DNA of 59,496 bases, counting the filler, from Dimargaris cristalligena (Eukaryota): NCBI GenBank assembly GCA_003614675.1. It is 2 parts of 2 records of this genome, joined end to end, with 100 filler letters (N's around TTAATTAATTAA, not from the genome) between each part and the next. Parts side by side here need not be neighbours in the genome. Positions count along the whole stretch, not along the records: positions 1 to 29,711 come from ML002476.1; 1 more part is not named here. The stretch is one strand, 5' to 3'. Positions within the stretch are counted from its first letter, which is position 1, and every line of letters starts with the position of its first letter. Below, piece after piece: positions 2,624 through 56,319 of this stretch. The notes under the pieces were generated by a model. That model worked only from the letters and a program-made list of their open reading frames with translations. It was not told where the DNA came from and searched no databases. A program made the position numbers and the translations under genes.

Positions 2624-3993
2624 ATTGCTGTAAACGGAATCACGAATATGCAATTGGGGGATCGGAGGTGCAATATACTAATCAGGAATAGAGATATACT
2701 TAGCAAATGAAAATAGTTAAAGGTAATATTTGCGAATGGGGCATTCGAAAGATGGAGAGTTTAGTAAGTCCATACTAGGCTTAGAGACGAGGGTGGCTCA
2801 AAGATGGTGCAGCAGCCCCATATTCCGGACGCGCGGGATGTACCAAGCGCATAGTATAGGGCCGGATTCAATTATTCAATTTAATACCAGCATACTTCGC
2901 TGGGATCCCAATACATTATTTCAATCGAAGCACAGGCACAACTCCCATTATATTTCACGCCGACATATGCCTTTAAAAAACGGAGTAATCTTGGCAGTTG
3001 ACTTGAGCGGTAAAACCATTCCCCGGGGCAGACTAAACCACCCTCTACCTGGAATCTATATTTGGCACCCTAGCCTCAGACAGTGTAGCCAAGTGTAGCA
3101 CTAAATTCTGCCCACCTTTAACTATAAGAGCAGTTCTCCGACTAACCCAAGTAACAAGACGTGTGAACTGTATGTTAAATTAATCTCACCAAAGGATGTA
3201 ATAGTTCGAGAATTTAAAAGGCTGGTTTCAGTGCCATACACATAAGAATGGTAAATTATACTGAGTGAGAAACAATGTGGCCCGTATTTGTGGGGAGACA
3301 CCACTGCAATTCAAATCGGGATAAACTGTGTTGCATTGGTGTGGGCGAAGGCTGGCACACCTGGATAGTAAGTTTATAGGGTAAAATATACGGAAAATTT
3401 ATTGTGAACCGGTAAAGCCAGTCTCACCGAGCGAGTTTTTTATTGTGTGGCCGCCGTGGACCTCCCCCGTGCGGGTTTACAAGGGTTGAGGAGAAGGGGG
3501 ACGCCGACTTCTCTGCCAATGTCGGAGATTTGATTTTCCTATTTTAGCCGACCCGAAGGTGTAGAGTGGGACTTCAAAACCACCATTGAGCGTAGCCTGT
3601 ACCACCAATTTTTACACGGGGCGTGACCTGTTGACCAATATATAACGCGGGTTCACCTTGCGGTATAGGTGCCGCTAAAATACCAACGCGGGCTTACAGG
3701 GAAGAGGGGGGAGAATAGTCCGGATTCATTGTTCCCCTTCCTGTCGGTGATTAATTCGTGCGGTCGTTCCACTTCATTACACACCCGGGGTTATATTTCG
3801 AGTACAAGGGCGCCATATCCACACGCACACATAGATGTTGCTTTACCACACTATTAACTAATGTCTAACCGCTCCTGTACGCAGTGTAATTCGCTATCTA
3901 AGGTGCGTTTTCAATCTCCCGGGAGGACCCGCTTCTTCTGCGTCCAATATTATACATCCGCGTGGACTATCCGGCTTGGTATACACAGGTTCA

Positions 3994-4001
3994 TATATAA
4001 A
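3994..4001 (+). promoter_or_regulatory. Candidate TATA box of the signal-peptide/F-box gene
   Basis: TATATAAA about 150 bp upstream of the ATG at 4149, followed by a pyrimidine-rich leader. Confidence 0.45.
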
Positions 4002-4148
4002 AAGAATAGGCCGCCCACGATTAGCCCCATCTCCCTCTCTTTTTCTATATATTGCCAAGTCCTATACCCTACAAAATCTGGGTTTCCGGTTCAACTGGCC
4101 TATTTTCATACTCAACTCCGTAGAAGTCCCCGTCCCTAGTAATCCCTG

Positions 4149-5597
4149 ATGAATCTCTTCCTTGCCGTTGCCTCTACAGTAAGCTTACGCTTTGCACTGC
4201 TAGGACTGCTTGCCCCATTCGGTACAACGCACCCTACATTTTCCCAACAAGACCTGCTGGGAGAACTCCCATTTGAGGTACAAACCTTGTTAACCGACCA
4301 TTTGAACACTCAGTCTATAGTCCAGCTTGCACTAGTCTGCTCGCGGTTTAATTCGGTGGCTAGAGATGGGCTGCACCAAAGTCGAAATACGGTAAGTGCA
4401 CGGTGGTTTCTACAGTGACCTATTACATGTATCCGGGGGAGTGGGGGGGGGGGGGGGAGGGGGGTGTTTGCGTTTAAACCCATCCAATTTGCGCACATGG
4501 TATGTGGCTTATTTCACCATTACTAAAAATTATTCTTCTGGGTAGATTATTTATTTTCTTTCGTTGGCCACTTGGTGGTTTAGGTCACTGGTAAGATACG
4601 CACCTTCATGGGTATGCCAGAAACTGATATAAATGCCAAGCTTAGTAGCGTCCTGCCAACCCCTGCCAAACGAATCGAGACTCTTCTCGATATTATTCGA
4701 CCTTTTGAACTTTCGGCCTATCAGTCCATGGTGGTCTCAGTCCTGGAGTACCACCGTGTAGACCTGCGCGGCCAACCGTACGATGCTTTGGATAATGTCC
4801 CCGCCGAAGGCACTCCTGGTCCCTATGCCAGGCTGGCTCCCCATTTGCGGAGTGGGCTAGACCAACTGGCCACCAACTGGCAGTATCTCGACTACCGGGC
4901 CCTAAACCAGCAGCAAAAGATTGCCCTGAACCCCATCTGGGGTCTCATAGCCCAGGGTGAACTGGCCGACTTGGGCTGCGTTTGGAATAGTCTATTTGAC
5001 CTACCGTTTAATTCCCTTGAGCCACTCCAGCTAAAGGCGCGCATGTTAGCCATGCAGCGCGACACGCTCGATGCCAACCCAAACTACGCAGAGACCATCC
5101 CCGATGCCCAATGGTGGGCAATCACCCGGGACTTTGTCATCCCCAGTTTGGTGGTTGTTCTGATGGAAGAAGGCCAAAGTGCCTGGCTAGTTAATTTTTT
5201 GAAATCCAAGTTGAAAACGGATCCCCTGGTGGACCTCACCATCCTTTTGACCACTATTTTCCTACTCGAACGTGACGAATACCCATCTGACGCGGGGTTT
5301 ATCGAATACCTCGGTGGGCTATATGATACCAACTACCGGAACATGTACCTGCAATGCATGGGTGACTTTGGCCATAATCGGGCCCAGGTCACACTTATTG
5401 CGAAATGGCAAGTGACTCCAACCACCCTACCTGATTCATCCATCTGTGACAGCACTCTATACGACTCTCTAAAGTTATTTGTATCGGCAGATACTGTAGC
5501 CTTTCGCCTACTGCAAACAACGGTACCTGAAAATCTCCAAAGTGACCAGTTCTGGCGCAATGATTTAGTCACCGATGAATACAGCGAGCGAGTATGA
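4149..5597 (+). CDS. Putative secreted protein (~418 aa): N-terminal signal peptide, F-box-like motif, unrecognised C-terminal domain; exons 4149-4391, 4584-5597
   Basis: Exon 1 encodes MNLFLAVASTVSLRFALLGLLAPFGTT-HP (signal-like), then LLGELPFEVQTLLTDHLNTQSIVQLALVCSRFNSVA (F-box consensus LxxLPxE...L...L.LVCxxW/F). Donor G|GTAAGT at 4392 and acceptor TTTAG| at 4583 join in phase 0 to the 329-aa ORF. Confidence 0.75.
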
Positions 5598-6275
5598 TAT
5601 CTTATGAATACACATTACCAATACTCCCCTTATCATTCCTTACATTCAATAGATATGGGGTACGAAGTAGGCGGTGGCTGACTTAAATTGGGAAGAAGTT
5701 CAATCCGCCCATACCCCAGAGTCGATTTGCTAATTAAAAATACCCTCCAGTCACCTTTCCTTTAACATTGAAATTAAAATTAATATTCTAGCCGTTTTAT
5801 GCATGCCTTTCCTAGCTTAATTATACATTGAAATCCCAACACGCTATTCATTTTAAGAGAGTATATATTCGGAACTGACATCTTAGTATGATTAAGCCTA
5901 AGCAGCACCACTGGAGGCACGCAGAGCCTAGAGACGGAGGGAGAAGCGGCCACTTGACTTTCCACATTGAGCGAAAAGTTAGGACGTCTGCCCCCATGCC
6001 AAAAGTAATCGAACGATAGGTATTAGCTAGTTACCATGCGAGAATTCATTATTAGTTTTCCATGGAAAAGATTTGTGGGACCACGCTCAGGCACCCCACC
6101 GTTTAATTAATACTTCGCTATACCGATTTATTTCGAATCTATATGGTGTACTGATATGGAAAAATAAAAGGCGGGGCTATATAAGAGCTAAATCGTAAAA
6201 ATAGATAGGTTCGGGATACAGTTTACCGGGACAGATGCAGTATTTGCCTGGGCCACTTTCCACTTGATCCGACGC

Positions 6276-7304
6276 CTATTCCTGCTTAGCCGGGCTATCC
6301 GCCGCATCTGCTTCGTGGCCGAAAGTCTCTGTGAAGCCCTGCTCAAAGGCATCCATACCGAGACGGCCGTTGCCGTCCACCCCGTTCATGAAAGCCTCCA
6401 GCTGGTCCATCCGACGGCTCTGCATGTCGGGGCTGACTTCCTGGACGCGGAAATCACGGAGGGTAGTCCGCGTCACAAACGAAGTGATATCGGCATTATC
6501 CCCGCCGTTCTCCTCCGCGCCCAACAAGTACGGTGACTGGGCGGCCGGTTCCATGGCAATGCGCTGCAGATGGTCATCGATGTTATCGCGGGTCACAAAG
6601 TGCTGGGCGTTGTAAAAGAGGTCCACCATACGGGCCCGCAGTTCCCGCCGGTAGTGCGCATCCACATCGCGCCGGTTCTGTTGGCGCCGGGTGTGGCGAT
6701 CGGCCAGGAAACGGGCCTTATCTTCCGGGGTACTGAAACTCTGCACCAATTTGGATTCAATCGGGGCATCTTTCATAATGGTCGAGCCCTCCGCGTTGAG
6801 GAGATTTTCCGCCGAAAACGGATCCCGGGCCACCCGGGTCTGGAACTCCTGGCGCTCCGCCGCCTTCTGGGTCTGGGCCGCCTCCACTCGTTCCACCTCG
6901 GCCCGCTGGGCCTTTTCGGCCGCGTGGCGACGCCGGTCCGCCAGACCCAGCGAACGGGCCCGGTACTCGTAGCGGATCTTGGTCATTTCCAGCCGATAGG
7001 CCTTCTCCGGGGTGGCTTGGGCCGGCACCGGGGCGGGCTGACGTTGGGACGGCTTGGGTAGATCCTTCAAAGTCATGGGGGGCTTCTTGGCCCGATGGTT
7101 GCGGGGCCAATTCTTAGGGGGGGCAAACCCCGGGGCGTACCCACACACCCCCGGAACGTAGGAATCTTCCGTAGAGGGTTGGAAATCTCTGGGCTTGTTC
7201 GGTACCGAGGGAATCACGCTCGAGGCCCGTTGGGCTAGACGGGGCGCCGTCGAGAAAGCCCGGATCCGCGAGGCCATGTGAAGTGACGGGGAAATGGGAT
7301 TCAT
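6276..7304 (-). CDS. Mitochondrial protein, probably small-subunit mitoribosomal mS26/PET123-like
   Basis: Single-exon 342-aa ORF with an Arg/Ser/Ala-rich presequence (MASRIRAFSTAPRLAQ; alternative start 7277). Charged helical core and MVDLFYNAQHFVTRDNIDDHL resemble fungal mS26 as I recall it; the family call is tentative. Confidence 0.55.
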   Translation of the reverse strand: MNPISPSLHMASRIRAFSTAPRLAQRASSVIPSVPNKPRDFQPSTEDSYVPGVCGYAPGFAPPKNWPRNHRAKKPPMTLKDLPKPSQRQPAPVPAQATPEKAYRLEMTKIRYEYRARSLGLADRRRHAAEKAQRAEVERVEAAQTQKAAERQEFQTRVARDPFSAENLLNAEGSTIMKDAPIESKLVQSFSTPEDKARFLADRHTRRQQNRRDVDAHYRRELRARMVDLFYNAQHFVTRDNIDDHLQRIAMEPAAQSPYLLGAEENGGDNADITSFVTRTTLRDFRVQEVSPDMQSRRMDQLEAFMNGVDGNGRLGMDAFEQGFTETFGHEADAADSPAKQE

Positions 7305-8055
7305 GGTTATACAAAATTAGCGACCGCCAGCGAGGAGTTGTTAGCAAAAGAATGGGTCCTTTGACAGAGGAGGAATCGAAAGAGAACAGTGGTGGGTGGG
7401 CCGGCTGGTTCCGCTTGGTTAAAATCAGACTGGTAGGATTCCTTACGGTTGATCAGAATGGGGAGGAAACTCCGGCCTGATCAGGCAGTATAGTATGTAT
7501 GCGGTAGGTCTTGCTCTTACTTATTATCCATCCTAATGAATAACAGCCAGAATGTTCACGATGTGGAGAGCAGCGATTAGGGTACGCCTGGTGAATTGAT
7601 ATTATATTCACGTGATTTTAACCGCGGCATTTATTATACGCATTATGCATGTCATATGTAGACTATAGGAGCATAGGCTGAACGGGTTAACCCGCCAACA
7701 CCTGAAGTCAGGAAGAATGGGTTTACGAGTCGCTGTGGATTATAGTCTGAATTAGTGAGAAGGCGACGACGGATGTGCTATGGAGGAAGCAGCAGCGCCC
7801 TTTTGTCCACCGTCAACCACTCAATGCAACACGATCTCAACAAGCAACATCCAGAGGGGCTTTTTTACCTTCCCTAGACTCACACTGCGTGTCCCAATCG
7901 TTAATACTCCCCAACTCTTCCGCGCTCCCTTGATTATCCCTATTCCTTTCTGTGGCAGCTTCTGTTCTTGTAATTCACGGCATACCTACCTTCTGCGCAT
8001 TCGTCCATTTCCACCTCTCCCCTATTTTCCCACCAGCCCACCTACCCTAATCAAC

Positions 8056-16600: not shown

Positions 16601-18736
16601 ATGCTCCGCACTCCCGACCACAGTGTCGAAAGTCGAATGGACGGCCTCACCATCGGCAACCCCGCCCCGGGAGGAGTCTCCGACCACCCCACGGTCGCCC
16701 GAGTGGTCGCCTCGTCGTCTTCGTCGTCGTTGTCGTCCGGCACTGCCGCGGCCTCCAAGCCCCGGTCGGCGCTCATCACCCAAGCCGCCCCCCTAGTCGA
16801 AGTCAGTACCAAGTCGGCCTCCTCCGCCGGCCATGCCTACGGGGGCCCCACCGCCGGTATCATGACCAAACGAGCCCAAATGATGGCCCTCGACCCCGTG
16901 GTGCGCCGCAAATGCGAGGCCACGCAAGTGTACTTCCTGGACTATTACTTCGACCTGTTGTCCTATATTAAGCACCGCAAGGGCCGGTTCCAGAAACTGA
17001 AGGATGACTTGCGGAAAATCCAGGTCACCCAGAATCAGGCCCAGCTAGCCTGGCGGCGCTACTGTGCCGACGAAACAGCTTACCTGCGTCGGCGTCGCAT
17101 TCGCACCCAGGAGAAGGAGTTCAATATTCTGGCCCAGATTGGGCAGGGCGGCTACGGCCAGGTAAGTAACTGATATTTATACCAAAGTATCTGTTCGATC
17201 AACTATTCCCCAAAATTGAATGACAATCCACCATCGTATAAACCACCGCATGGATGGTACTTCCAACCGAGTTGCAGAACACTATATGTTAACCATGTGG
17301 CATGCTCTATGATTTTTGATGACCATGTAAACGTGCACTTGCAGGTCTTTTTGGCTCGTAAGCGCGACACCGGTGAAATCTGCGCTCTCAAGAAAATGAA
17401 CAAGAAACTACTGCAGAAACTCAATGAAGTTCAGCACATCTTGACCGAACGGGATATTCTCAAGGCGAGTCACACCGACTGGCTGGTCAAGCTCCTGTAC
17501 GCCTTCCAAGACCCCGAGCATGTCTACCTAGCCATGGAATATGTTCCCGGTGGTGACGTCCGCACCCTGCTCAATAGCAACGGCATCCTCTTGGACAAGT
17601 ACACCCGGTTTTACGTGGCAGAGATGTGTTTGGCGGTAGTGGCTCTGCACAAACTGGGTTACATCCACCGCGATCTCAAGCCCGAAAACTTCCTGATTGA
17701 TTCAACCGGCCATGTCAAATTGACTGATTTCGGCCTGTCCAAGGGCAACCTCAGCTCCCAACGAGTAGATGCCCTGCGCCACAAATTGGAGGCCGTCAAG
17801 AACAACCAAATTATCTACCGTACCTCGGAAGAAAAACGTAGTTTCTACCGGTCCTTGAAGCGCGAGGACATGACTTGTGCCTTTTCGGTGGTGGGATCGC
17901 CCGACTACATGGCCCCGGAGATTATCACGAACCAAGGGGCCGGCTACGATAACCGGGTCGATTTTTGGTCCATCGGGTGTATTCTGTACGAGTTCCTGGC
18001 TGGCTACGCCCCCTTTACTGCCCCCACTTTGGATGAGGTCTGGGTCAATGTATACCACTGGGAGCGGGTCTTTGAGCGCCCAAAGTTCGACAGCATCGAG
18101 GCGGAACAGAATTTGACCGCGGAGGCCTGGTCCTTGATTAACCAACTGATTACCCACCGCAACAATCGCCTGTCGTCCCTTACTGACATTCAAAACCACC
18201 CGTACTTCCACCACTTTGACTTGGCCACCATGCGAGAGACTGTGGTAAGTATCAGTATTTAATATATATTCAGTTGATGGTCCTGGTTGTTGGCTTAGGC
18301 CAGTAGCTCGGTGGTTTTGATGACGAATTCCCCATTGTAGACAACCCGGCCGTCTATATCACCGACTCTGGCATGATATAACCCTCCACTCTAACCCCCT
18401 AGGGTGCCATTCCTTGATTCTTTACCCCCATTCTGCTTACAGGACCCACCATTCGTCCCAATGCTCGAGTCCGAGGCGGATACTTCCTATTTTGATGATT
18501 TTACCAATCCCGACGACATGGAGATATACAAGGACGTCAACAACAAGAAACAGCAAATTGAGGAATCCATGCGTACCACCGAGCACCAGACCACCGCCAA
18601 CAAAGATGGCGGTACAGCCGACCCTGGTGGTGACGCCGGCCTACCGAACGCCACCGCGGGGTTGAAGGAAGACCGGGCGGCGTTCATTGGATTCACTTTC
18701 CGTCACCGGGATTTTCTGCCCACTGGACAGCGCTAA
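16601..18736 (+). CDS. DBF2: NDR-family Ser/Thr kinase of Dbf2/Dbf20/Sid2 type (~584 aa); exons 16601-17161, 17345-18244, 18443-18736
   Basis: Mob-binding region YFLDYYFDLLSYI..R..R; GQGGYGQ|VFLARKRDTGEICALKKM; HRDLKPEN; DFG with insert; SVVGSPDYMAPE; AGC tail PPFVP..DTSYFDDF and FIGFTFRH. Both introns are phase 0. Confidence 0.92.
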
Positions 18737-20126
18737 ATCATGGCTTGAGTCGCTCCAGCCCGATTTATTTTTCTTAAAGTTTCGACATTTTATTTTATTT
18801 TTCCGATAATTACCCTAGTCTGGGCCGATGGCTATGGCGGGTTTGGGTCATCCCTTGTGAAATGTCCCTCGATGCCTCCTTGTCCTAGTCGATTCCTGTT
18901 TTCGCCTAAAATCTGCGGACCAACACCCGTCGTTTCCAAGCAGCTACGACCATCCCCCCAACTACCGGGGCTAGTCTTATTTATCTTGCCCGGGGCTTTT
19001 TTATATCACCCGATATTCATATCGACCATGCCCATTCTTTTATAACGTAAACCAACTGTATTTCTTTACATTTTCAGGGTGTCGTAAAACCACAACTTTA
19101 TATACCACCGCGCACCCCCCCCCCTCCTTTTATTATTTAATGGCAGGTTTATTATGCTACCAACATCCAATTCATATTCAGTTTGATTCGCATCTATTCC
19201 AGTACCTCCTCCACCCTTTACCATCCGGTAACTTTGCCAGTAACAATTTTCGACTCTACCCAAGGCTCAAGTAGTCTGTTGGATTAAGTATCAGTAGCAC
19301 CCCCAGTGAGGTAGTTAGATCCCTGGACGATTTAGTTGCCAATGATTTCTGATACGAATGATGCATTTGAGGTGTGCAAATCGGTTGAACACTAATTGGG
19401 TATATATGGGTGGGCATTTTATCGGCCAATTTCCGATCCCAAAGAATCGAATAGATTGTGGGGTGGAGAAACCAGGCAGATTTGATCCAGTGAATTATTT
19501 ATTAGTGGACTGATATTCTTGTTTGCAATGGTGACTGAAGTAGCTATTTTGAGTGGCTCTTGTTGTATCGTTCAGGTGGCCATCTCTTTTGGGCCTATAT
19601 TATGATCAGACTCACGTGGACTGGCATCCAATGGGACTTTTTTATAGATAAGTTTCCCAACAACCAGTAAGCGTCGTGGAATACTGATATGGGATGGGAT
19701 AATCTAGTAGAAGAAAATGAAAATCGGCCAGAAATGTGCGCGTGTCACAATCGAATTGAAATGCCCTCTTTCTTGCTGTATTATGTGGTGCGCGGTAAAG
19801 AGGCGCTGGACTTGACTGGCTAACTAAGAAAGAAGGACCTGGTCAACTAGTTAAATAAACTGGGGGAGTTTCCACGCATACACCAACCTCCAACAGGGCA
19901 TGCGATTCCTTCAACAGCCTTCGTTGTTTTGTGTCCTTTTTCCGCCTGTATGATCAGTGGTGTTGTGTGTGGATCGGTTGAAGTTCCCTTTGCTCTTTAT
20001 TGTTCGCTTGCCCATTTTTGTTCTTTATACTTCTTAATTCAGTCTAGTCAGACCCTTTTCTTCTATCGAACTACTCGACCCATTCTTCAATATATCCAGT
20101 TAGCTCTTTTATTTTATTATTTCGAT

Positions 20127-20990
20127 ATGGGTATCTTCTCCGTTTTCAGCCGTGGCTCGTCCACCCCGTCCGAGGACTCGTCTTCGACCCAGACCACCCC
20201 AGCGGCCCCGGTCCCGGCGCAGTCCCAGACTCAAACTAAAACTCAAACTCTATCCGACGGGTCCTATCCCTCTAACTCAGCCGCCCCGGCCGAGACCCTC
20301 TCCAGTGCCACTAGCCCGGAACTCGTCGAACGGGCCACCCCGGACACCCCCTCCTACTCGTCCACGCATGCGGCCGCCCATATGGCCGAACAGTCGCTGG
20401 ATCTGTCTAATATTTTCGCCGCCGCCCAATTGTCCACCGATCGGGGCCGTGAGGCCCTGTTGGGCCCGGACAAGAAAACGGTCGAATACCTGATGCTGGA
20501 AGAACACGCCTCGCACCAGCTCCCCGGGGCCGAACCCGGTGCCCTCCCCAGTCGCGGCTGGTCGGACGACCTTTGCTACGGTACCGGTATGATGTACTTC
20601 TTAGGGCTCAGCACTGGGGGTGCTTGGGGTCTGCTGGAGGGTCTGCGCCAGACCCAGGGCCGGCCTTTCAAAATCCGCCTCAACGGGGTGCTGAACGCCT
20701 GTACCCGGCGCGGCCCGTTTTTGGGTAACTCCGTCGGGGTCATGACTATGCTCTACAATTGTACCAATGCCCTGATCGGCTCCATCCGCGGCGAACACGA
20801 CGTTTACAACAGCCTGGGGGCGGCTACGATAGCCGGGGTATTGTTCAAGTCGACCGCGGGCATCAAGTCGGCCGCTACGGCCGGTGTCCTCTGCGCCGGC
20901 GCCGCTGGTGTATGGAATCTGAATCGGCAAAAGGTCCAGGATATGCGTAGAGCGTTTGTACAAAAGGCGGGCATTGGCCACTTTGCTTAA
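20127..20990 (+). CDS. TIM23: Mitochondrial import translocase Tim23
   Basis: LPSRGWSDDLCYGTG..Y..GLSTGGAWGLLEG, RLNGVLNACTRRGPFLGNS and AGVLFKSTAG; first in-frame ATG at 20127. Confidence 0.93.
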   Translation: MGIFSVFSRGSSTPSEDSSSTQTTPAAPVPAQSQTQTKTQTLSDGSYPSNSAAPAETLSSATSPELVERATPDTPSYSSTHAAAHMAEQSLDLSNIFAAAQLSTDRGREALLGPDKKTVEYLMLEEHASHQLPGAEPGALPSRGWSDDLCYGTGMMYFLGLSTGGAWGLLEGLRQTQGRPFKIRLNGVLNACTRRGPFLGNSVGVMTMLYNCTNALIGSIRGEHDVYNSLGAATIAGVLFKSTAGIKSAATAGVLCAGAAGVWNLNRQKVQDMRRAFVQKAGIGHFA

Positions 20991-26727: not shown

Positions 26728-28056
26728 TCACTCGTCCTCGTCCATCTTCGAATTCTTGTAGAGTTCCGGGAAGTCGATGTACTGTTCTTGGACTCGGCTA
26801 ACGTCCTGGTTAAAGTCGGTTTTGACTGAAATTTCCATAATCTTGTTATTACCCGCCTCAAGTCCTCCAAAGACACAGCCGTTAGCCTTATCGATAGCCG
26901 AGAGGACTGCCATCACCGAGTTCTTGTCCTAGTGATTTCGAAATTATGGATATGCAGGGATATCATAAACATATATTATATAGTTGTTTAGAAACGGATA
27001 ATGGGAACCTGGGAGAGTAGGGCGATTGTCGAGCTAGTGATTGGACTAATGAGCCTCTCTAGGCATAACCACTGTCAATAAAACGGTACTTGGGAGAGAG
27101 TATAGGACCGTAAATTACCTCGATGCATAGTGTCTGAAAACCCACTAGATTATAGTCCTCAATGAGCTCACAGAGTGCCTCGTTTAACTTGTGGTATCTT
27201 TTAGTGAAAGCACCGGCATTCAGGCGATCCAGAAGATAGGAGAGGTCATGCACCTCAGTATAGTATTCTAGGTTGAAGTCTTAGGAAATGGATATGGGCC
27301 GTATTGTACATAAAATATTGGGGTATAAATTGATCCCAGTCAGTGGTATTCAAAAAATAATAGTCAATAATTAACACCGGTTAAAGAGGCATGGGTTCGT
27401 CTAATCAACCGAAATTTTACGGCAATCAAATAGCCCGACTGGATATTGCTAATTCCAAATCATACTCATAATAATCCAACTCTTGACATAGAAGGCTTAC
27501 CTAAGTTTCCGTAGGATTGAATAAGATCGATTTTGGACAGGACATTGACATGGGGTAGCTCCAGCCAGACCATAGTTTTCAACGACAAAAGAAGCACCGA
27601 AATGAATTTAGCCGCATCGGTGCAGTGGTGGGCATCGACCAGATTGACCGCTGCGAATCGAAAGTCGCGTTGTTTGATCAACTGCCCAATGACCTGGTCC
27701 CGAAACTGCGGGTGGTGCGTGTACAGTTCCACCTGACCCGGACAGTCAAAAATATAGTACGCCTGCGGGGAATACTCGGCCAGGCGGCCCAGCAGCCAGT
27801 CCATATGGTCGGCCAGGTACTCCATGCAGTAGATGAGGCCCCCGTTGGGTCCGAGCCCCAGCTCATCCATGGTGTCCTCTAGCGTAATAAGTTCCGTAAG
27901 GTCAATGGCGCAGTCGTAGGGCAGGTGATCGTTGGCGGGGTCGAGATTAACTAGAATGACTTCGCGACCCAGGGCGGTCAAGAATTGCTGCATGCCGTGG
28001 CAGTAGGTCGTTTTGCCCGCCCCAGGCGGTCCAATGACGAGCTGAGCAAAGGGCAT
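26728..28056 (-). CDS. GPN2: GPN-loop GTPase 2 (~305 aa); exons 28056-27501, 27279-27119, 26928-26728
   Basis: [73 protein letters not shown]. The intron-1 acceptor is AAG rather than YAG. Confidence 0.93.
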
Positions 28057-29002
28057 TACGAAGCAGCTAAACGATGGAGTATAATAACAGAAAAAAGGGG
28101 GGGTAAGAGTATATTGCGTGGAGACTTGAGGTATACTATGTAGCGGTCACAACGAGGAATTCGGAATTGGATTTGAAAGGTGTGTTTTTGTGATTATATT
28201 ATCAGGAATAAGAAAAAGAATTGGTAATGGGCGGTACCAATGAGGAGGTTCCTTTTCGAATACAGGGTAAGTAATGAACATATGGACACCTCCCGTTTAG
28301 AAGTACCAAAAGTCAGTGACAAAGGGTTATACCAAACTCAGTAGGGTTATTCTTCACATTTAGCGGTAAAGAAGTATTTAGCCCGTATTGAACAACCAGT
28401 GTCACTCAAAACCGTTCGTATACGTATACCCCACTTACGAAAATGTCAGTATTGATAATAAAAAGACAATGGCTATGGTATATACGTCTAGGTACATCAA
28501 TTTTAGTAGTATTTCCACTACTAATGTGGAATATAGGCCTGGGGAGCAGGTGTAATTGATCTGAAGTATTATGATTATATACTATAGGCAAGACGCCTCT
28601 ACCCAACCTACAGGTAATGGGTACAGGCCAAGTTAAGCAATGTTCAGAATATTTAACCAGTGTAGATTCAGACTGTATTCCTCTAGGCAAAGTATGGTAT
28701 TCATAATGGTAGGCCAGGGAAGAGGAATCCAATTGACAATATTTGCAATATGCTGATATACATTTGTACCTTTACGGGCTTATACAACTATAGGTGTATT
28801 TTATTGGAATCTCGAAAAAATATGTTTGAAGTACAGAGTAGCTGCTGAAGTAAGATAATGTAATTTACAAAAAAAAAAAAACCCTGGAATGAAGGCAATG
28901 TAAACATCTAGGGATAAATGAAATGTGCAATATTTGGCTGTTAATGAACCACCACATTTGGGATATAACAGCAACACTAAATGGAGCTGTTGGGTGATAA
29001 TA

Positions 29003-29140
29003 TGGGTGAAGTTCAGCTTGGCTGTATAAGAGTTTAACTGATATGTGTATGGGAAAATCAGTGGGATGTTGATTTTCAACCAGTGGTACTTGCCTCATTA
29101 AATGGATTGTTTGTTATACAGCCTTGTTGAGCTACTCCCA
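29003..29140. mobile_element. 138-bp MITE, copy 3, with an empty site in paralogous copy A
   Basis: GGGTGATAA TA|TGGGTGAAGTTCAG...GAGCTACTCCCA|TA TTATCAAATAGGCCGA. Copy A (reverse complement, ~14720-14748) reads GGGCGATAA TA TCGTCGGATAGGCCGA with a single TA. Confidence 0.92.
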
Positions 29141-29323
29141 TATTATCAAATAGGCCGACATGAACCAGGAGTGCTGCCCAAGAATGGGACTCTGGGGAGG
29201 GGGGCAAGTAGCCTCCTGTAGATAAGCAATACCAAATTCACGAAGGTTGATGAGTAAACAATGGACTGGGCAATGGCAGTTTCTATACATTGGTTGACTG
29301 CCTCCCAGATTTGTTTTTGGTCA

Positions 29324-29620
29324 TTATTTCTTCATAAGCTTATGAGGTAACACTTATACTGACTAAAGCCTGCTCCATTAATCAATCACTTTGTGATAGT
29401 ATTCATTCATATGCCTTGGGCAACATGGTGCCAATGGTTTGTCTACTGCTGACTTTGGAGTTCTTACTAGGATACCAAAGCCAAGTTGGTTTGAACAGGG
29501 CTGCTTCTGCTGGATGGCCCAGTGTAGTCAGCCTGGCATGTCCAGTTAATGGCAGGGCTAGGAAAATAGAAGTTGCAACTAAGGCAAGGAGCACAGTAGC
29601 AATTGTAAAGAACTGAACAC
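29324..29620 (-). pseudogene. Decayed small secreted-protein gene (copy B)
   Basis: Signal-like VQFFTIATVLLALVATSIFLA-LP with no clear ATG, a premature stop at 29403 and a terminal AAGAAATAA matching copy A. Confidence 0.5.
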
Positions 29621-29711
29621 AAATCCTTGAAAACTGAACTTTATTCAAAAAGATAGGTGATAAAAAGGGAAAGGTGATGATAGACTTGCTGTTCCAAGAG
29701 GTGGCAGTAAG

Positions 29712-29811
29712 NNNNNNNNNNNNNNNNNNNNNNNNNNNNNNNNNNNNNNNNNNNNTTAATTAATTAANNNNNNNNNNNNNNNNNNNNNNNNNNNNNNNNN
29801 NNNNNNNNNNN
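29712..29811. other. Assembly gap or contig-joining linker
   Basis: 44 N + TTAATTAATTAA (stops in all six frames) + 44 N, exactly 100 bp. Confidence 0.97.
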
Positions 29812-32554
29812 CATGAGTTAGACTCACCAGAAATTTTGGATGACCATAACTTCATCAAAAATAGTCATAGAAAGATAGAATAATATAATGGAACAGGAAA
29901 CCAGAAGAAAAGAAAAATCAGCTCATATAGAGAAGGTAATAAAATCTCTTACTCCAGAATGACCTCAATAGCAGCTGATGACCATGACCTTGTCTATATG
30001 ACAACTGGGCCTTGGTGGCTGACCAGTGCCAGTGCATATGCAGCCCAGTTCACACTGTCCATGGTAGTACATATATATTATCTATTAAAATATATAAAAC
30101 AACTTACCCCTAACATTGACCACTGTTGGACCAAATTACCCATTGATTATCTACCCCATACTCAATATGCTACCCATTTATAAGACCTCCTATAGATTCA
30201 GTCCAACTACTATTTAGACAAGTCTCTGATAATAGCTCAGAGTAGTAACAGTTGTGGTGTACAGCCATCAGCATGGTTAATGGTCATACTACCTCACCAT
30301 AATGGCACTGTATTAATTACATTGTAGTCCAATGGCCAAAGTCTGTATGTCAGTGATGTGGTTAAATTCTTATGATAGAAAGGTTGGAGTGGCAAATATG
30401 TTGAATTTATTCTCCAAACTAGCATGACAATGCCAGCTAAAGGAATTGGGTAGTAACAGGTGGGACTGTGTAAGAAAGATGTTGGTAGATCTACTATTAG
30501 TAGTATGGTGCCCTTGTTTTGCTATTAATATGGACTGTCTAATGATTTTGTTAGCTAGACAACTCCTTTTTTAACTCCTATTTTCTAATAGTATGTAATA
30601 ATTTATATCTCAGCAGGACACACCAGGTTCCCCCAGTATGGTTGAATGACTCAAGTCTACTCTGAATGCCCGAAATGAGGGTCAGTCACCCTTCTCAATT
30701 GATCCACATTCCTAATTTTATTGCCCCCCCCCCATTCCAACAACATGAATAAGAGCAATTGGGAATGCTGCCCAATTTTTCTAACCTGGAGAGGTGAAAT
30801 GTAATTGATGAGTACTTAGTGTTCCATATTTGCTTTCCAATACAAAAAGAGATTATAGATGGAAACACCAACCTTGAATAATAAATTATTTGCTGTATGC
30901 CTGCTAACCATTCAAGAACATTGGTAGGTTTAAATAGGAAACTAAAATTGAGTGGACTCCCATTTTTAGCCAGGTTCACAATGCAGCCTGTTTCTATGCA
31001 CATTGCACACACCCACTCTCATACAAATATTAGTGTACCTGCACCCCTCCTGAAGTAAATCCATGATCTATACATTGTCTATTCCTTTGGAAAACACATG
31101 TCACCACTACCTTTAATCCTATTACCAAGTCCTATGATGCCCCAGTTCTATAGAACAAGATGTCCTTCCCCTGTCAGGATGCCTGACTTCATCTGGTCAA
31201 CAAGGATATCAATATTCCAATGGCCTGATCAGGAACTACAATTAGCAACTTGGGTGCAGCACTCTCAAGTTTAACTACATCACCTATAACCAATCAAGCC
31301 AACTATTGGAAGATTAGCTATCTACTGTCTTTTTACACCTCCACGGATACATAATTGATAAGGTTAATTTTAGTTACTTGAAATACCAAGCCCAACTAAA
31401 TCTAACTACTATCCACCAAGGGCTTCACAGTATGAGTATATTAGTGTACTGCCATGGGCAGGTACAGTCTTCTCCTTCCATGGGAATAACCAATTATTTC
31501 CTTTCACCACACAACACCAACACACACCGAATAAGCAGTGACTACTTCAAAAACTTATTTGGAAACCACCTATCCAGTTGATCCTATTTTCAACCCTGCC
31601 TATTTCTGGTCCTGCTGACTGAATGGTTACTTCCACATCATCAGTGTTTGTGATTCCAGACAAGTTAGAAGGAACATCCTCTCATGTGGAAGTGAAGTAG
31701 GTAGTGTTGAAGCTTATCCTTATCCTTATCCAGTTACCATGAATGCCTTGGTGAATCTGAGGTATTTCCACTTTCCATTTTATTTAGCTATTTTCAGTAC
31801 AAAGTTCAAACTTGAAGACCCAGCCAGTTTTTCCCATTGTGGTTTTATGGTTAGTCATCCGTCCAAGGACAACATCTGAGAGGCATAGCTTAAGTTTAGT
31901 TTATAATCCTATTTTATATATATAGTCCCCCAGTTGGCCCTTAAAATGGCAAGTTACTTTCAAGATAAGTTTTTATTATTCAGAATAAATATCTGCCTTT
32001 AACTTAACCTATAATTTTACCCAGTATTGGTTGAAGATTTCAACTGGAAGTCAATTTATTGTTTTATTTTTTTCTATTTTTCTATTTTTATTTATCATGT
32101 TACATGACCAGTTCATTAGCACATAGCCACCATGGCTCCTCCAGTTCCTAACTCTGATGATGGGACTTTTGGATCAATCTGCTTAGAACATTTCCCACCA
32201 TACCCCAGTTCGTGCTCAGACAGCTGTTCCAACCCAATCTGACTAGCTGAGGGACCATTTCCCAGATTCTCAATGTTCCATCTAGGCACCAGTCCCTTGA
32301 ACCTGATGTCCAGTGAGCCTACCAGCCCAGCGGAAGGCAGGGGACCCAACCCCAGCCCCAGTCCCAGAAGGGAGGAACCTTAAACCACTGGCACAATATC
32401 AGTATATCATATAATATTGGCTTTGGGCCATGCCCAGAAGTCATACAGTGCTCACTCCTCTAGTTTGCCCCACATCAACACCAGAACTCATATTATATTA
32501 AGGAAGGTGACTATTATGGTGTGTCATTCACCTAATAAGTAGTCTTTAAAGTAC

Positions 32555-32871
32555 TGTTACGCCTACAGTGAGAGCAGGGTCCGACCCTGGCCACCATATT
32601 AACCCAACCTCCCTGGATCCCACCAATATTCCCAAGACCATAACCTTGGAAGCACTAACAGCAGAGCAGGGTGGGTTATAGCCATCCATTAGCTTCACCA
32701 ACCATATATGTGGCCTCCTAATTGCTCTTATCTGAGGGAATTAATGGGGTATATAAAAGTGTACCAGCTGTACTCCTTAATTCCTTTAGTTTACTAGCAA
32801 TTGTGTTTCTATTGGTTCTATAATACATGTCCCCTCTTAATAAACACACTTATCCTACCCACTATTTAACA
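32555..32871 (+). mobile_element. Possible solo LTR of a second family
   Basis: TGTTAC...TTTAACA termini, TATATAAAA at ~32750 and AATAAA at ~32839, inside the CpG-depleted block. There is no matching target duplication and no visible similarity to the 13851 LTR. Confidence 0.45.
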
Positions 32872-33622
32872 AGAGGACAATTGGTACATTAGGACATAGT
32901 TTTTAGCTCCAACCTAGTGGGCAAATATCACAGTAGTTTGTACCAATTACACTGATCATCTATACCTACTATACTTAGTTTTTTTTTGTAGATAGCAAAA
33001 GGATATGATGTTGCCAAATTTTAGGTGGCATTTGATAGTAAAATATATAGCATTGAGACCCAATGGACCAGTAAAGTCAAGAACTACACTGTCCAATTCT
33101 AAAGCCTTAAATCTTAATGGGGCTTTTAGTTATGTTGCTAGATCAACAAGACCTTGGGGCTGAATTAGGTTTTTGTTAACAGAATGAAATAGAGACACTA
33201 AAGGGGTTTGATTTATTAATTGAAACACCATATAGCAAGCTAAGAAAAGTAATTAATACTAATAGTGAATACTTTGTGAATAACTGATACTCCCCAAATA
33301 AATATTAAATTAATCTCAAAGGTACTAAATACCAGGTTGATGATATTGGGAATCACTTGCCTTTTATCTTTTTCTAAGAACCTTTTATTCCCAGGTCTGC
33401 TTAGATTATGGGGATCATCTACACCAAGGGGAAAGGGTAATTTGTGCATATTTAGAACTTATCATCACTGGTGTTGCCCGGGTTAACCACTCTTAGTTCA
33501 TCAAGAGCCCCAGGGATAGGCGAATTTTATTAAGGAATTAATATAAGTGGTATGAACTTACTGAAGCGATGTGGACACTAGTAAACTGGAGAATCAGAGT
33601 GTGCAACTAATACTTATTTATA

Positions 33623-33760
33623 TGGGTGAAATTCAGCCCAGCTATATAAGGGTTAGCATTATATGTGTATGGGAGAATACATGGGAAAATAATTTTTAAC
33701 CAGTAATAATGGCTTTATCAAATGGATTTTTCGTTATACAGCTTGGATGAACTTCTCCCA
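33623..33760. mobile_element. 138-bp MITE, copy 4
   Basis: TA|TGGGTGAAATTCAGCCCAGCTATATAA...TTATACAGCTTGGATGAACTTCTCCCA|TA; same orientation as copy 3. Confidence 0.92.
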
Positions 33761-34636
33761 TATGGACTATACTAGGCGTCGGATAGGTCTAAAGAGAGTC
33801 AATAACATATCCACCGAACTCTCTGGAATAGTGCCCTAGATAGCAGGACTGGTGACGCCCGCGATGAGGTGTTGGTTAACCAGGAGTCCCCGGTCGAGAC
33901 GTAGGTAGTTGGGATATACTCTCGATAGCAGATGCCGCGGCCGGAACTACGGATCCGGTTATATCAACGGGCTCCAAGGGAACCAGATTGCCTCGGTGAC
34001 CGGGGTCGGGCCTTGTGGTGACTGCAGATGTAGCACTGGCAACTGTAGGTGAAGTCCGAGTAACTGCTGATATCTGCAAAGCCAATGGCTTATTATCATA
34101 AAGTTCACTAGTCTTGTACAGGTGCTTTGGCTATGTAATGGATAGCCATTTGTAGTTTTGATTGAGCATACTCTGTTGGTTTTTCACCATTATCTGACCC
34201 GTCTGTCAAAATGTTGTTGACCTAGCGATGGGAGCGAGCCCTACGTCGAGGGGTCCGAATCTCACCTGTCATGACGTAATCCCCGATCTTACCGGTACAC
34301 CAAGTCCTGACGCTACAATAACGGGGCTATCCTATAGCAATATGTATGATAACTGGCAAGGAAATTATAGAGTTACCCCCAACTGGGGATAGCATTTCCC
34401 GGAATACCGACAGTATCAATAACTTATTGAGCAATAAACTGTACGGCAGTTAGACATACAGAGTATATACATCATAGTACAAAGTGTTTATAGAGTGAAT
34501 AAACAAGGTAGGTAAAAAAATAGTACTCGAGGCAGTCAGGAACAGCATAAAAAGAAATTTGGAAAGTTTCCAAGTTCATAAGAGTCAATAAAAAAATATT
34601 ATTAAGTGCTAGTTCTGGAGTGACCTCCATACGGAC

Positions 34637-39638: not shown

Positions 39639-41327
39639 TCTGGAGTTCCTCCTCCTTCCAACCAGCCCAAGACCGCCAAGGTCCGCAATGTTGAGTGGAC
39701 GTGTGCATCCGTGCTGACAGATATGGGATATGTCCTGGGAACTCCCTCCCTTCTGCTTCCCCCCTAAACTGGTCGACTTCTCCTGCTTTAGTGGCCATTT
39801 CCGTGGCTACGCGGTGTGTGTTCTACTTATTTACTTATTTGCCTTAAGGCTGACCTGGATGCTGTGAACATGCCCTCCCCCCCCCCCGCCTACTCGTACT
39901 TGTTTAGTCATAGCTTCAGCGATGGACGGGATGCGCATGGTTTTTTGTCAATTAAGATCGCTCCCCCTTTATCATCTACCTTTCGCTATAAAACCGGGCA
40001 ATCCAAGCACCCCCATTTTCTTTTTCATGAACCGCGTTGATCGTAGGGCGATGCAGAATCGGTTCCCCCAACCCTCCTTCGCGTTAACCCCACATCAACA
40101 GCCTCCATCCTAGGATTTATGGCAATCCGAAACATTGAAAAATAGAATAATTTTAATCAACGGGTGGTATAGTGAGTGTGGCGAACTTTTGACTCAGATG
40201 CAGGCGTCGTCCTCTCTATTAAGGTGTGAGAGAAAACAGAATGGCCGATCTCACTCCAGCGCATTACAGTCAACTGAAACCCTCCCCTCCGCTCAACGTA
40301 GCGGCCAAATCCACCAACCCAAAACATCGCGAAAATGCGAATACCTCACCTACGAGCTCCCGCGTATTCTTTTTCAAAGAGTATATTGTAGTATACGTTC
40401 GCCCCCGACCCTAAATATATTGGTATAATCTTATAAAAATATTGCAACTGGGGATGATTGATACTCAATTTTTGACTGTGCCCATTATATCCAAAACCGA
40501 CGCCGCCGAGGACGGTAAACAAAATGGCGGGGCGCACAGCAGTGGGTGAGTGTCCTCTTTTCCTCCTATCGGCTACGTGCCCCAAATCCGCTCGACCATG
40601 ATAGAATGGCGTTACTGATCTTGGTTTCGGCGTTTTAGAGCAATGGGGGCTTGGACCTGAGTAGTATAAATCCCAAAGACTTCCTTATTCTTACCTAAGG
40701 CTATACCTGTTCCTTTCACCCAATTTCCAAGGACTGCATATTTATTATTCGCGTTATTCAGTTCCCCCTCGTCCACTTTATATTCGACATTCATACATAC
40801 GCGGCATCGCATACCCGCAGTTTGCACACTCCGCCCATCGTCCAGGGACGCCGCGTCCGTCACTGCCTTTCTGTATTTCCGGTTTTTCTATTATATAGAT
40901 TTGAAGCAGCATTGCATAGCAATTGGCTGGCTCTCGTAGTAGTCATATCTTGCTCTTTACTCTCGGCCACCATTGCCTGGGAGGACCGATTCCCCTTCTC
41001 TCCTGGTCGGGTTGGTTTCCCCTGACCACAACAAGCTTTTTTTCCAGTAATTTTTCCTTCGGTAGGAACCGTTTGTATAGGGCACACCCACCCTCCCACT
41101 ATTTCGTGTTTGACCTTCATCTGACCTGCCCATCGCCGACACGGTCTCTTGCCCTGCCCAGTTCCCAGGTTTAAAAAAGACGAGACACCCTCCCCCCTCG
41201 GCACGCCGTTATAGTACTATTTATCCTTTAGAATTTATCGCCCCGTTATTGGAGCATATCACCCCTATCCCCCTACATCTGTCCTTCTTCTCTTCACCGC
41301 TGCTCTCGCAAATCATCCATCGGCACC

Positions 41328-42563
41328 ATGTCTCAGCCTGGCATCAACCCGCAGGCCTACATCAGTGACAAAACCATCCATAATGGTCCGGCGGCCGGCC
41401 TTCCGCCCCCCGACGGCAAACCGATACCAACTGCCGCGACCTATCCGCCCAATGTCCAAAACGTGGGTCCCAGTGGCCCACCCTACGCCGGTAACTACAG
41501 CTACGGTGTACCCGTTGGTGCCCCCAACCCCAACTTCCCGGCTGCCAACGCGGGAAATTCCAACTATTACGGCCAGCCTAGTGCCACTCAGACCATGCCC
41601 GCGGGCGACTACTCCTCCAACCACCCCGTGATGGAGTCCGACTACCCGAACCAGGCCCATATGAGCAAGAAGGAGCGGCGCCGGGAGGAATTCATGTCGC
41701 ACGCCCGCTGGCACACCCGCGCCTTCCCCAATCGTTGGTTCGAACGGGTCCACTCCCTCCGGGTCCGCTACCGGGACTACCTGGCGGAATTCTTCGGAAC
41801 CGCTGTGCTGGTATTTTTAGGCGACGCCGCGGGGGCTACCGTGACACTGTGGCCTGATGCCGCCTTCAGTTCGCCTTGGCTCATTGTTTGTTTCGGTTGG
41901 GGCCTCGCCCTGACCATCGCACTGTTCATATCGGGCGGTATTTCCGGGGGTCACTTGAACCCCGCGGTCACGTTCACCGCCGGCTGTCTGCGCGGTTTCC
42001 CCTGGCGCAAAGTGCCCGGTTACATTGCGTGCCAATTAGTCGGAGCGTTCGTCGGGGCCGGCTTCGTGTTCGCCCTCTTCCACAGTTCGATCCACCATTT
42101 CGACGGTGGGATTCGCCAAACCACTGGTCCCTTTGCCACCGCCGGTATTTTTGCCACTTACCCCAAACCCTGGATCACCGTTGGAACAGGGTTTTTGGCC
42201 GAAGCCATTTGTACGGCTGTACTACTTTTCGGAATCTACGCCATTACGGATGAACGTAACATGCCCGGTACGAGGTACGCTCCCATCGCTATTGGATTGG
42301 TCATCACCGCCATTGGTATCTGCCTGGGTTTCCAGACCGGTTTTGCCGTCAACCCCGCCCGTGACTTGGGCCCCCGGGCCTTCACTTCCGCCGCGGGCTA
42401 CGGTTCCGAGCCCTGGATCGCCCACGACCGCTGGGCTTGGGTTCCCTGCGTGGCCCCATTTGTAGGAGGATTGATTGGCGGTTTCCTATATGATTTCTTT
42501 GCCAACCACCCTCGCTTGAGTCACGACGATGATGATGATGATAAATCCCATTCCGAGGCTTAG
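41328..42563 (+). CDS. Aquaglyceroporin (GlpF-type MIP) with a long Pro/Gly/Asn/Tyr-rich N-terminus
   Basis: YLAEFFGT, ISGGHLNPAVT, TAGIFATYP and TGFAVNPARDLGPR; intronless, 411 aa. Confidence 0.95.
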   Translation: MSQPGINPQAYISDKTIHNGPAAGLPPPDGKPIPTAATYPPNVQNVGPSGPPYAGNYSYGVPVGAPNPNFPAANAGNSNYYGQPSATQTMPAGDYSSNHPVMESDYPNQAHMSKKERRREEFMSHARWHTRAFPNRWFERVHSLRVRYRDYLAEFFGTAVLVFLGDAAGATVTLWPDAAFSSPWLIVCFGWGLALTIALFISGGISGGHLNPAVTFTAGCLRGFPWRKVPGYIACQLVGAFVGAGFVFALFHSSIHHFDGGIRQTTGPFATAGIFATYPKPWITVGTGFLAEAICTAVLLFGIYAITDERNMPGTRYAPIAIGLVITAIGICLGFQTGFAVNPARDLGPRAFTSAAGYGSEPWIAHDRWAWVPCVAPFVGGLIGGFLYDFFANHPRLSHDDDDDDKSHSEA

Positions 42564-48500: not shown

Positions 48501-48542
48501 CCAGAACCTAATCCCCAGAAGAAGATTGGCATAATTATCACG

Positions 48543-49535
48543 ATGTCTCATTCTCCCGCCATCACCACCCACGACGCCGACTACGAAAGTCTGTCGGCCC
48601 AACAAACGACCGAATTCAGCGTGGTCAACATGGAAAAGCAACACGCCATCGACCACGACTCCAACACCACCCACGCCCAATCCCGCTGGCATAGCACCGG
48701 TTCCTCCTCCAAACACTGGCTCGAGCGGTTCCACTCCCTCCGGGTGGACTACCGCGACTATCTCGCCGAATTCTTCGGCACGGCGGTCCTCCTCTTCCTG
48801 GGTAACTCCGTCAGCGCCACCGTGACCCTGTATCCCAGTGCAGGAGCTTCGGCCTCCTGGGTGCTGGTCTGTTTCGGCTGGGGGTTCGCTCTGACCATGG
48901 CCCTGTTCGTTTCGGGCGGTATCTCGGGCGGTCACTTGAACCCCGCGGTCACTTTCACCGCCGCCTGCCTGCGCGGCTTCCCCTGGCGCAAGGTTCCCGG
49001 TTTCATCGCTTCCCAGCTCATCGGCGCATTCGTCGGTGCCGCCTTCTGTTACCTCATGCACATGAGCTCCCTCGATAATTTCGACGGGGGGGTTCGTCAA
49101 ACGACTGGTGAATTCGCCACGGCCGGTATTTTCGCTACTTACCCCCAGGCCTGGATCACGGTGGGCTCAGGCTTCCTCATTGAAACGATTGCCACTGCCA
49201 CGCTGGTGTTCTGTATTTATGGTTTGACGGACGAACGTAACATGCCCGGTACCAATTATGCCCCGCTGGCTATTGGCTTCGTGGTTACCATCATCGGTAT
49301 GGCCCTCGGTTTCCAGACCGGTTTCGCCATCAATCCCGCTCGTGACCTGGGTCCCCGTACTTTTACCGCTTGGGTAGGCTATGGCTCCGAACCCTTCACG
49401 GCGGCCAACAATTACGCTTGGGTACCCGTGGTTGCTCCCTTCCCCGGGGCCTTGATTGGTGGTTTGATTTATGATTTCATGATTAATCACCCACGCCTGG
49501 ATAAGTCATCCTCCATGGCGGACAAGGAAGTGTAA
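48543..49535 (+). CDS. Aquaglyceroporin, tandem paralog
   Basis: YLAEFFGT, ISGGHLNPAVT and TGFAINPARDLGPR; 330 aa, core highly similar to 41328-42563; TATAAA at ~47948. Confidence 0.95.
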   Translation: MSHSPAITTHDADYESLSAQQTTEFSVVNMEKQHAIDHDSNTTHAQSRWHSTGSSSKHWLERFHSLRVDYRDYLAEFFGTAVLLFLGNSVSATVTLYPSAGASASWVLVCFGWGFALTMALFVSGGISGGHLNPAVTFTAACLRGFPWRKVPGFIASQLIGAFVGAAFCYLMHMSSLDNFDGGVRQTTGEFATAGIFATYPQAWITVGSGFLIETIATATLVFCIYGLTDERNMPGTNYAPLAIGFVVTIIGMALGFQTGFAINPARDLGPRTFTAWVGYGSEPFTAANNYAWVPVVAPFPGALIGGLIYDFMINHPRLDKSSSMADKEV

Positions 49536-56100: not shown

Positions 56101-56319
56101 CATCGAGCACTTGTTGGGCAGTAGATTACCATCAAATTCTTTCGTTTTTTGATCGATTTTTCTCCTCTACTTTTTTAACTATCTCGTCTTTCATTTTGCG
56201 GGTTACACTTGTTATTCTATTGGGAACGAGACCTACCCTCGTCTCTCACTACTACTTCCCTTTTTTATATATATCTTTTCGGCCGTTGCCAACCCCTCAA
56301 CCAAATTGCACCGCCAACT

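Follow-up and report, generated by a model that had tools for sequence, protein, structure and literature searches.

A two-exon gene at positions 4149-5597 of a 59,496-nucleotide stretch of DNA from Dimargaris cristalligena (GenBank assembly GCA_003614675.1; hereafter the window, in which positions 1 to 29,711 come from ML002476.1) encodes a protein of 418 amino acids (aa). Judged by its sequence, the protein is composed of a putative signal peptide (residues ~1-27), an F-box (residues 38-81) and an orphan helical domain (residues 82-418), and appears to be specific to this species. We propose, tentatively and at a chance that we place clearly below even, that it is a secreted F-box protein, which is delivered into the host fungus to recruit the Skp1-cullin-F-box (SCF) ligase of the host. 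This effector interpretation is, as a whole, partly supported, by the gene structure, the F-box match, the conservation of the leader in the sole paralog, the restriction to one species and the parasitic lifestyle. We regard the protein as a plausible and readily testable candidate and not as a demonstrated effector. The gene has already been deposited as a hypothetical protein, and its reading as a candidate effector, which we consider plausible, did not appear in the literature searched.

The Dimargaritales are described as parasites of Mucoromycota and Ascomycota, which they attack by means of an appressorium and a biotrophic haustorium (PMC9866270), and D. cristalligena RSA 468 is reported to have been cultured on Cokeromyces recurvatus, with weak growth in the absence of a host (PMC6784888). 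The setting that an effector requires, a parasite in contact with living host cytoplasm, is therefore provided by the haustorial biotrophy described for the order (PMC9866270). In the proposed mechanism, the leader would send the nascent chain into the endoplasmic reticulum (ER) of the parasite, so that the F-box would never meet the parasite's own cytosolic Skp1. The mature protein of ~44 kDa would be secreted at the haustorium and would then enter the host fungus, where its F-box would bind host Skp1 and its C-terminal domain would present a host protein to the SCF ligase, which would ubiquitinate it. Since a true F-box has no use outside a cytosol, a secreted one could serve only in that of the host. 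Skp1 is highly conserved among fungi, and thus the SCF core encountered by the parasite's F-box in a fungal host would be much like that of the parasite itself. Leader cleavage, secretion, host uptake and Skp1 binding, as well as the identity of the substrate, are what we infer.

Structure of the gene and its relatives

The features of the gene are as follows.

3994..4052, + strand: TATA-like motifs (TATATAA at 3994, TATATAT at 4046), putative core promoter
4149 (ATG) to 4416-4418 (stop), + strand: upstream open reading frame (ORF), 89 aa
4149..4391, + strand: exon 1, 81 codons; 35/75 residues identical to the paralog (E 2e-19)
4149..4229, + strand, codons 1-27: hydrophobic leader, putative cleavable signal peptide, from hydropathy, the -3/-1 rule and conservation in the paralog
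4260..4370, + strand, codons 38-74: F-box (L-P-x-E-V ... V-C-S-R-F), PF12937 and PF00646
4392..4583, + strand: intron, 192 nt, phase 0, GTAAGT...TAG
4584-5597, + strand: downstream ORF, first ATG 4608, TGA 5595-5597, 329 aa from Met90
4584..5597, + strand: exon 2, 337 codons and the TGA stop; presumed substrate-binding part, predicted to be all-helical

The original prediction, made from the DNA alone, stated that the gene is split into ORFs of 89 and 329 aa, which are joined by an in-phase intron at 4392-4583. The two ORFs were found at 4149-4418 and 4608-5597, and joining 4149-4391 to 4584-5597 across the phase-0 intron gives a 418-aa product. This spliced translation is, letter for letter, the D. 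cristalligena protein RKP37569.1 (P0005), whose record title is 'hypothetical protein BJ085DRAFT_29360' and whose UniRef name is 'F-box domain-containing protein'. By exact look-up, the 329-aa exon-2 product was found to share a 90% cluster with the 418-aa RKP37569.1, and thus the public gene models conflict, since the two-exon record stands in the same cluster as a record, listed under NCBI sources, that contains exon 2 only.

A HMMER search against 1,835,955,588 representatives gave three proteins at E <= 0.001, namely the query itself, P0002 and P0003. P0002 (405 aa, E 1.7e-51, 40% identity) shares the leader, the F-box and the exon junction with the query, and P0002 and its cluster mate P0004 are the D. 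cristalligena proteins KAJ1977902.1 and RKP35527.1. The match to P0003 (852 aa, E 7e-11, 10 stretches) was rejected as one to low-complexity repeats. A word-indexed search of 5.8 billion clusters with exon 2 returned one match, to itself, among 1707 candidates, and a search of the same 5.8 billion clusters with the family profile returned the same two clusters (2 matches among 8000 scored). When exon 1 was compared with longer proteins, none of the 540 candidates reached E <= 1, which is a weak negative, since the cluster of the 418-aa record is represented by the 329-aa form. None of the 210 pattern matches of a metagenome scan was confirmed, and a second copy of the gene was not found within the window. 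On present data, the family would consist of two paralogs in one species, D. cristalligena. Single-copy orthologs in free-living fungi, which had been named as an outcome that would speak against an effector, were found neither among the 1.84 billion representatives nor in the word search of 5.8 billion clusters. The other Dimargaritales assemblies are described as low-coverage (PMC9866270). An origin of the contig from host contamination was judged unlikely, because the clusters hold D. cristalligena records only and no homologs were found elsewhere, including the Mucorales.

The splice junction was compared with that of the paralog. The alignment passes the junction without a gap, reading ...S-R-N-T|V-T-G-K-I-R-T-F-M-G-M-P in the window protein and ...Y-R-N-T|V-S-G-K-I-K-T-V-M-G-M-P in the paralog, and the exon-2 products are identical at 123/324 residues (E 4e-67). 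The residues V-T-G-K-I-R-T-F lie directly after the acceptor TAG and 5' of the first Met that exon 2 encodes, yet they are conserved in the paralog. Such residues can be translated only when they are joined to an upstream exon, and therefore the comparative evidence for the 4391|4584 junction is good. The lone branch-like motif found in the intron by the motif scan is CTAAA at 4523. An acceptor at 4545 was rejected, because its frame runs into a stop and the residues right after 4583 are those conserved in the paralog.

At the 5' end, an in-frame TAA (4140-4142) precedes the ATG at 4149, which is the only ATG of exon 1 and lies in a weak context for initiation, C being found at -3. The TATA box that had been noted upstream corresponds to TATA-like motifs located by motif scan 155 nt (3994) and 103 nt (4046) 5' of the start codon. 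The intron contains a G15-A-G6 run at 4443-4464. Contigs assembled from three DNA runs end or start at this run, and their summed depth spikes there; the run is a likely cause of assembly breaks, and it is possibly also a cause of the exon-2-only gene model. Between 3900 and 5800, the contigs of the three DNA runs show no differing letter or indel, although the window itself may derive from these runs, which thus do not provide independent support. As a separate observation, one contig of run X3 matches the window up to 4110 and then continues with 255 unlike letters, ~40 nt 5' of the start codon. A chimera, an allele or a rearrangement could account for this divergence.

Leader, F-box and C-terminal domain

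A hydrophobic leader ending in ...GTT|HP had been read from the DNA, and its anatomy was recovered in the spliced protein. Residues 1-13 are mildly hydrophobic and are followed by R14, a core from F15 to F24 with a Kyte-Doolittle (KD) mean of 2.24, and G25-T26-T27|H28-P29. The paralog has the same layout, with K2 and K12, a core from V13 to L24 (KD 2.48) and G25-T26-A27|Q28-P29. Both proteins thus have a charged n-region and a core within the 7-15 residues of a signal peptide (10 and 12 residues, respectively). Small uncharged residues at -3 and -1, without Pro at +1, are present at the same alignment column in both, in agreement with the -3/-1 small-residue rule of von Heijne. A linker rich in Pro, Thr, Ser and Gln follows the putative cut in both paralogs. 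The leader aligns without a gap and is identical at 10/27 residues, as compared with 21/44 for the F-box and 127/337 for the C-terminal domain. The leader is thus conserved to the same degree as the remainder of the protein, and this suggests that it is functional. On these grounds, the leader has the n/h/c layout of a putative cleavable signal peptide.

In the window protein, the residues that follow the core are neutral to acidic (D35, E39, E43), and K/R does not recur until about R66/R67. Flanking charges determine membrane orientation by the positive-inside rule, and therefore this flank would orient the F-box and the C-terminal part towards the lumen. No second membrane span was found: beyond the leader, no 19-residue stretch has a KD mean above 1.44, a value reached at residue 291, and neither paralog has an HDEL-type or a hydrophobic C-terminus. 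The lack of a further span and of a retention signal would agree with a soluble secreted product. N-glycosylation sequons are absent from both paralogs, and this was set aside as not significant, because shuffled sequences lack them with P(0) = 0.08 and 0.20. The main text of the D. cristalligena genome paper contains neither 'signal peptide' nor 'SignalP' (PMC6784888).

The curated gathering cut-offs of Pfam are 24.3 bits for PF12937 and 20.5 bits for PF00646. Residues 38-74 of exon 1 scored 29.3 and 24.0 bits, respectively, both above the cut-off, and the whole 418-aa protein scored 25.6 and 20.5 bits. The F-box-like motif that had been recognized from the DNA is therefore a match to both families at their gathering cut-offs. 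The motif is L40-P41-F42-E43-V44 ... V63-C64-S65-R66-F67, in which the paralogs agree at L40, P41, F42, E43, V63, C64 and S65. The best match among solved structures was the F-box of yeast Dia2 (PDB 7pmk, chain L; 7pmk_L), in which residues 205-241 align with residues 32-68 of the window protein. The positions L-P-x-E-[IV] and V-C-x-[KR]-[WF] are shared, although the match is weak (E 0.069) and the F-box of Dia2 is not near the N-terminus. Dia2 is a nuclear protein without a hydrophobic leader and has tetratricopeptide repeat (TPR) and leucine-rich repeat (LRR) domains.

The remainder of the protein had been described as an unrecognized domain of ~340 aa, and it is indeed 337 aa long without a Pfam, PDB or confident fold match. 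No Pfam family was found at E <= 10 in this part, and the top match of a PDB search with the family profile was isoflavone synthase at E 0.84. AlphaFold2 models, both built on 3-row alignments, were all-helical and of low confidence, with a predicted local distance difference test (pLDDT) score of 40.8 for the whole protein and 43.3 for the C-terminal part. In the ESM Atlas, ankyrin, TPR and pentatricopeptide repeat (PPR) leads were all below the bars of the tool, the ankyrin leads scoring at most 0.79, inside the range that it reports for shuffled proteins. None of these leads was reproduced with the paralog, which gave no usable match, and all of them were rejected. Thus, an LRR or ankyrin repeat domain after the F-box, as in the known F-box effectors, was not found in this protein. 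With these results, every sequence-level statement of the original prediction holds.

Possible function and its alternatives

Several observations weigh against a host-delivered effector. The PF00646 score of the whole protein only equals the cut-off and is marginal, and the F-box of the paralog P0002 reaches 14.7 bits, under the Pfam cut-off. One of the two public annotations has the 329-aa exon-2-only model, and a frame-shifting AG lies at 4544-4545, ~20 nt 3' of the CTAAA motif. With its length, the hydrophobic stretch at residues 3-24 (19-residue KD 2.04) could serve as a membrane anchor, and the window protein lacks a K/R ahead of R14, its extreme N-terminus being free of basic residues. 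Only two members make up the family, which shows no expansion. The 329-aa exon-2 product is identical between the public records, as compared with 2/342 residues differing in a neighboring gene and 6/405 between the paralog versions P0002 and P0004, two of which are in the F-box (R47Q, K50E); this gives no sign of an arms race, although the numbers are small. In addition, we know of no uptake motif or route for mycoparasite proteins.

An alternative that we regard as somewhat unlikely, though deserving serious attention, is an endogenous membrane-tethered F-box protein. The leader would then be an uncleaved anchor in the membrane of the ER or another organelle, and the F-box and C-terminal domain would face the cytosol of the parasite and form a membrane-localized SCF ligase. 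A KD mean of ~1.6 is the usual threshold for a membrane span, and both residues 3-21 of the window protein (2.04) and residues 4-24 of the paralog (1.89) exceed this value. A conserved leader implies a function also in this case, and the F-box would gain a use in its own cell. On the other hand, the would-be span is interrupted by a basic residue (R14 in the window protein, K12 in the paralog), after which a core of only 10-12 residues is left. Anchors of the N-out/C-in type, such as those of P450s or Tom20, have a basic cluster after the hydrophobic stretch, unlike the window protein. Moreover, the small -3/-1 residues followed by the Pro/Thr/Ser/Gln-rich linker are conserved. In our judgement, the leader has an anatomy more like that of a cleaved signal than that of an anchor.

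It is unlikely, in our estimate, that the gene encodes an ordinary cytosolic or nuclear F-box protein of this lineage, working in the parasite's own SCF ligase, with a leader that does not target or with a wrong 5' gene model. Many fungal F-box proteins are fast-evolving and have unrecognized C-terminal domains. An orphan C-terminus and a narrow distribution are thus usual for F-box proteins and do not point to an effector. The weak start context (C at -3) and the public record that models exon 2 alone also agree with this possibility, and the gene models appear to be ab initio, the main text of the genome paper containing neither 'RNA-seq' nor 'transcriptom' (PMC6784888). Against it stands the in-frame TAA at 4140-4142 ahead of the sole ATG of exon 1. 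Furthermore, the paralog starts in the same alignment column with a gap-free leader, which is as conserved (10/27) as the C-terminus (127/337), and the model of the paralog from a second pipeline, KAJ1977902.1, includes this leader. A secreted or lumenal protein acting independently of SCF, in which the F-box-like helices are a structural or other binding module, is improbable: the F-box scores are near the threshold and below it in the paralog, and the nearest solved F-box matches at E 0.069 only, but the window protein reaches the curated cut-offs of two independent Pfam F-box models, the L-P-x-E and V-C-S-x positions are invariant between the paralogs, and we know of no extracellular function of an F-box.

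SSGP-71 of the Hessian fly forms a large family, in contrast to the two members found here. SSGP-71 from this insect (Mayetiola destructor) is reported to combine a signal peptide with an F-box and LRRs and to bind Skp proteins of the host (PMC4617103). The candidate effector from D. cristalligena would resemble it as a secreted protein of a eukaryotic parasite, in which an F-box at the N-terminal end precedes the domain that binds the target (PMC4617103). The two differ in that SSGP-71 has ~13 leucine-rich repeats and acts in a plant host, whereas the window protein has no recognized repeats and the host is a fungus. F-box mimicry is established for the bacterial RipG/GALA, AnkB and VirF proteins and for SSGP-71. 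RipG7, a member of the RipG/GALA proteins of Ralstonia, is described as binding Arabidopsis SKP1-like proteins (PMC4617103). By analogy with Ralstonia RipG/GALA, Legionella AnkB and Agrobacterium VirF, the window protein would be a parasite F-box that enters a host SCF ligase. These bacterial proteins reach the host through type III or type IV secretion and have an LRR or ankyrin domain, as opposed to the ER-type eukaryotic leader and the orphan helical domain found here, and they have no sequence relationship to the window protein beyond the F-box.

The original prediction knew of no characterized fungal example, and the literature searches agree with this statement. However, NLS_30765 of Rhizophagus clarus, likewise uncharacterized, is listed as a predicted secreted effector candidate with the F-box-like PF12937 (PMC4746824). 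This protein differs in its size (542 aa), in its origin from a plant-symbiotic member of the Glomeromycotina and in having been binned by a predicted nuclear localization signal (PMC4746824), and it was not among the relatives recovered by the HMMER, family-profile or exon-1 word searches. No fungal F-box effector was found among the papers listed on secreted F-box proteins, nearly all of which concern bacterial effectors, and the main text of two surveys of mycoparasite effectors and of zygomycete secretomes contains neither 'F-box' nor 'Dimargaris'. It is a rather doubtful but conceivable extension of the effector reading that the protein is the first fungus-to-fungus F-box effector, in which a novel helical domain marks host proteins for degradation, convergent with GALA/AnkB/VirF and SSGP-71.

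Almost nothing is known of how biotrophic mycoparasites among the early-diverging fungi control their hosts. If the protein is secreted and binds host Skp1, SCF hijacking by F-box mimicry, which until now has been established in bacteria and a single insect, would have evolved in a fungus as well, and the gene would provide the first molecular handle on the interaction between Dimargaris and its host. Both partners are fungi in which the SCF core is conserved, and standard yeast tools can therefore be applied to every step. If the leader proves to be a membrane anchor, the gene would encode a lineage-specific F-box protein of the ordinary kind, and its interest would be modest.

Neighboring features of the window

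The other features of the window are as follows.

6276-7316, - strand: neighboring ORF, 342 aa, without a Pfam family; clusters with a record named as a hypothetical protein of D. cristalligena, and the public versions differ at 2/342 residues
9138-10796, - strand: GDA1/CD39 nucleoside phosphatase, housekeeping-type
17174-18262, + strand: protein kinase, housekeeping-type
19851-20990, + strand: Tim17-family protein, housekeeping-type
41232-42563 and 48444-49535, same strand, ~6 kb apart: MIP/aquaporin-family ORFs (PF00230, 176 and 179 bits)
56179-57747, + strand: ammonium transporter, housekeeping-type

Three of the eight neighboring ORF products examined in the window are exact database entries, and one cluster includes D. 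cristalligena KAJ1984188.1. Because the neighbors are of the housekeeping type, the F-box gene does not lie in an obvious effector cluster. Four antisense ORFs and one upstream ORF on the + strand gave no Pfam match above the cut-off, and no Rfam match was found within 3000-7000. The region from 28001 to 34000 is AT-rich, with a GC content of 0.37-0.40 as compared with ~0.48 elsewhere, and contains no ORF of at least 200 aa. The pair of MIP/aquaporin-family ORFs looks like a tandem duplication.

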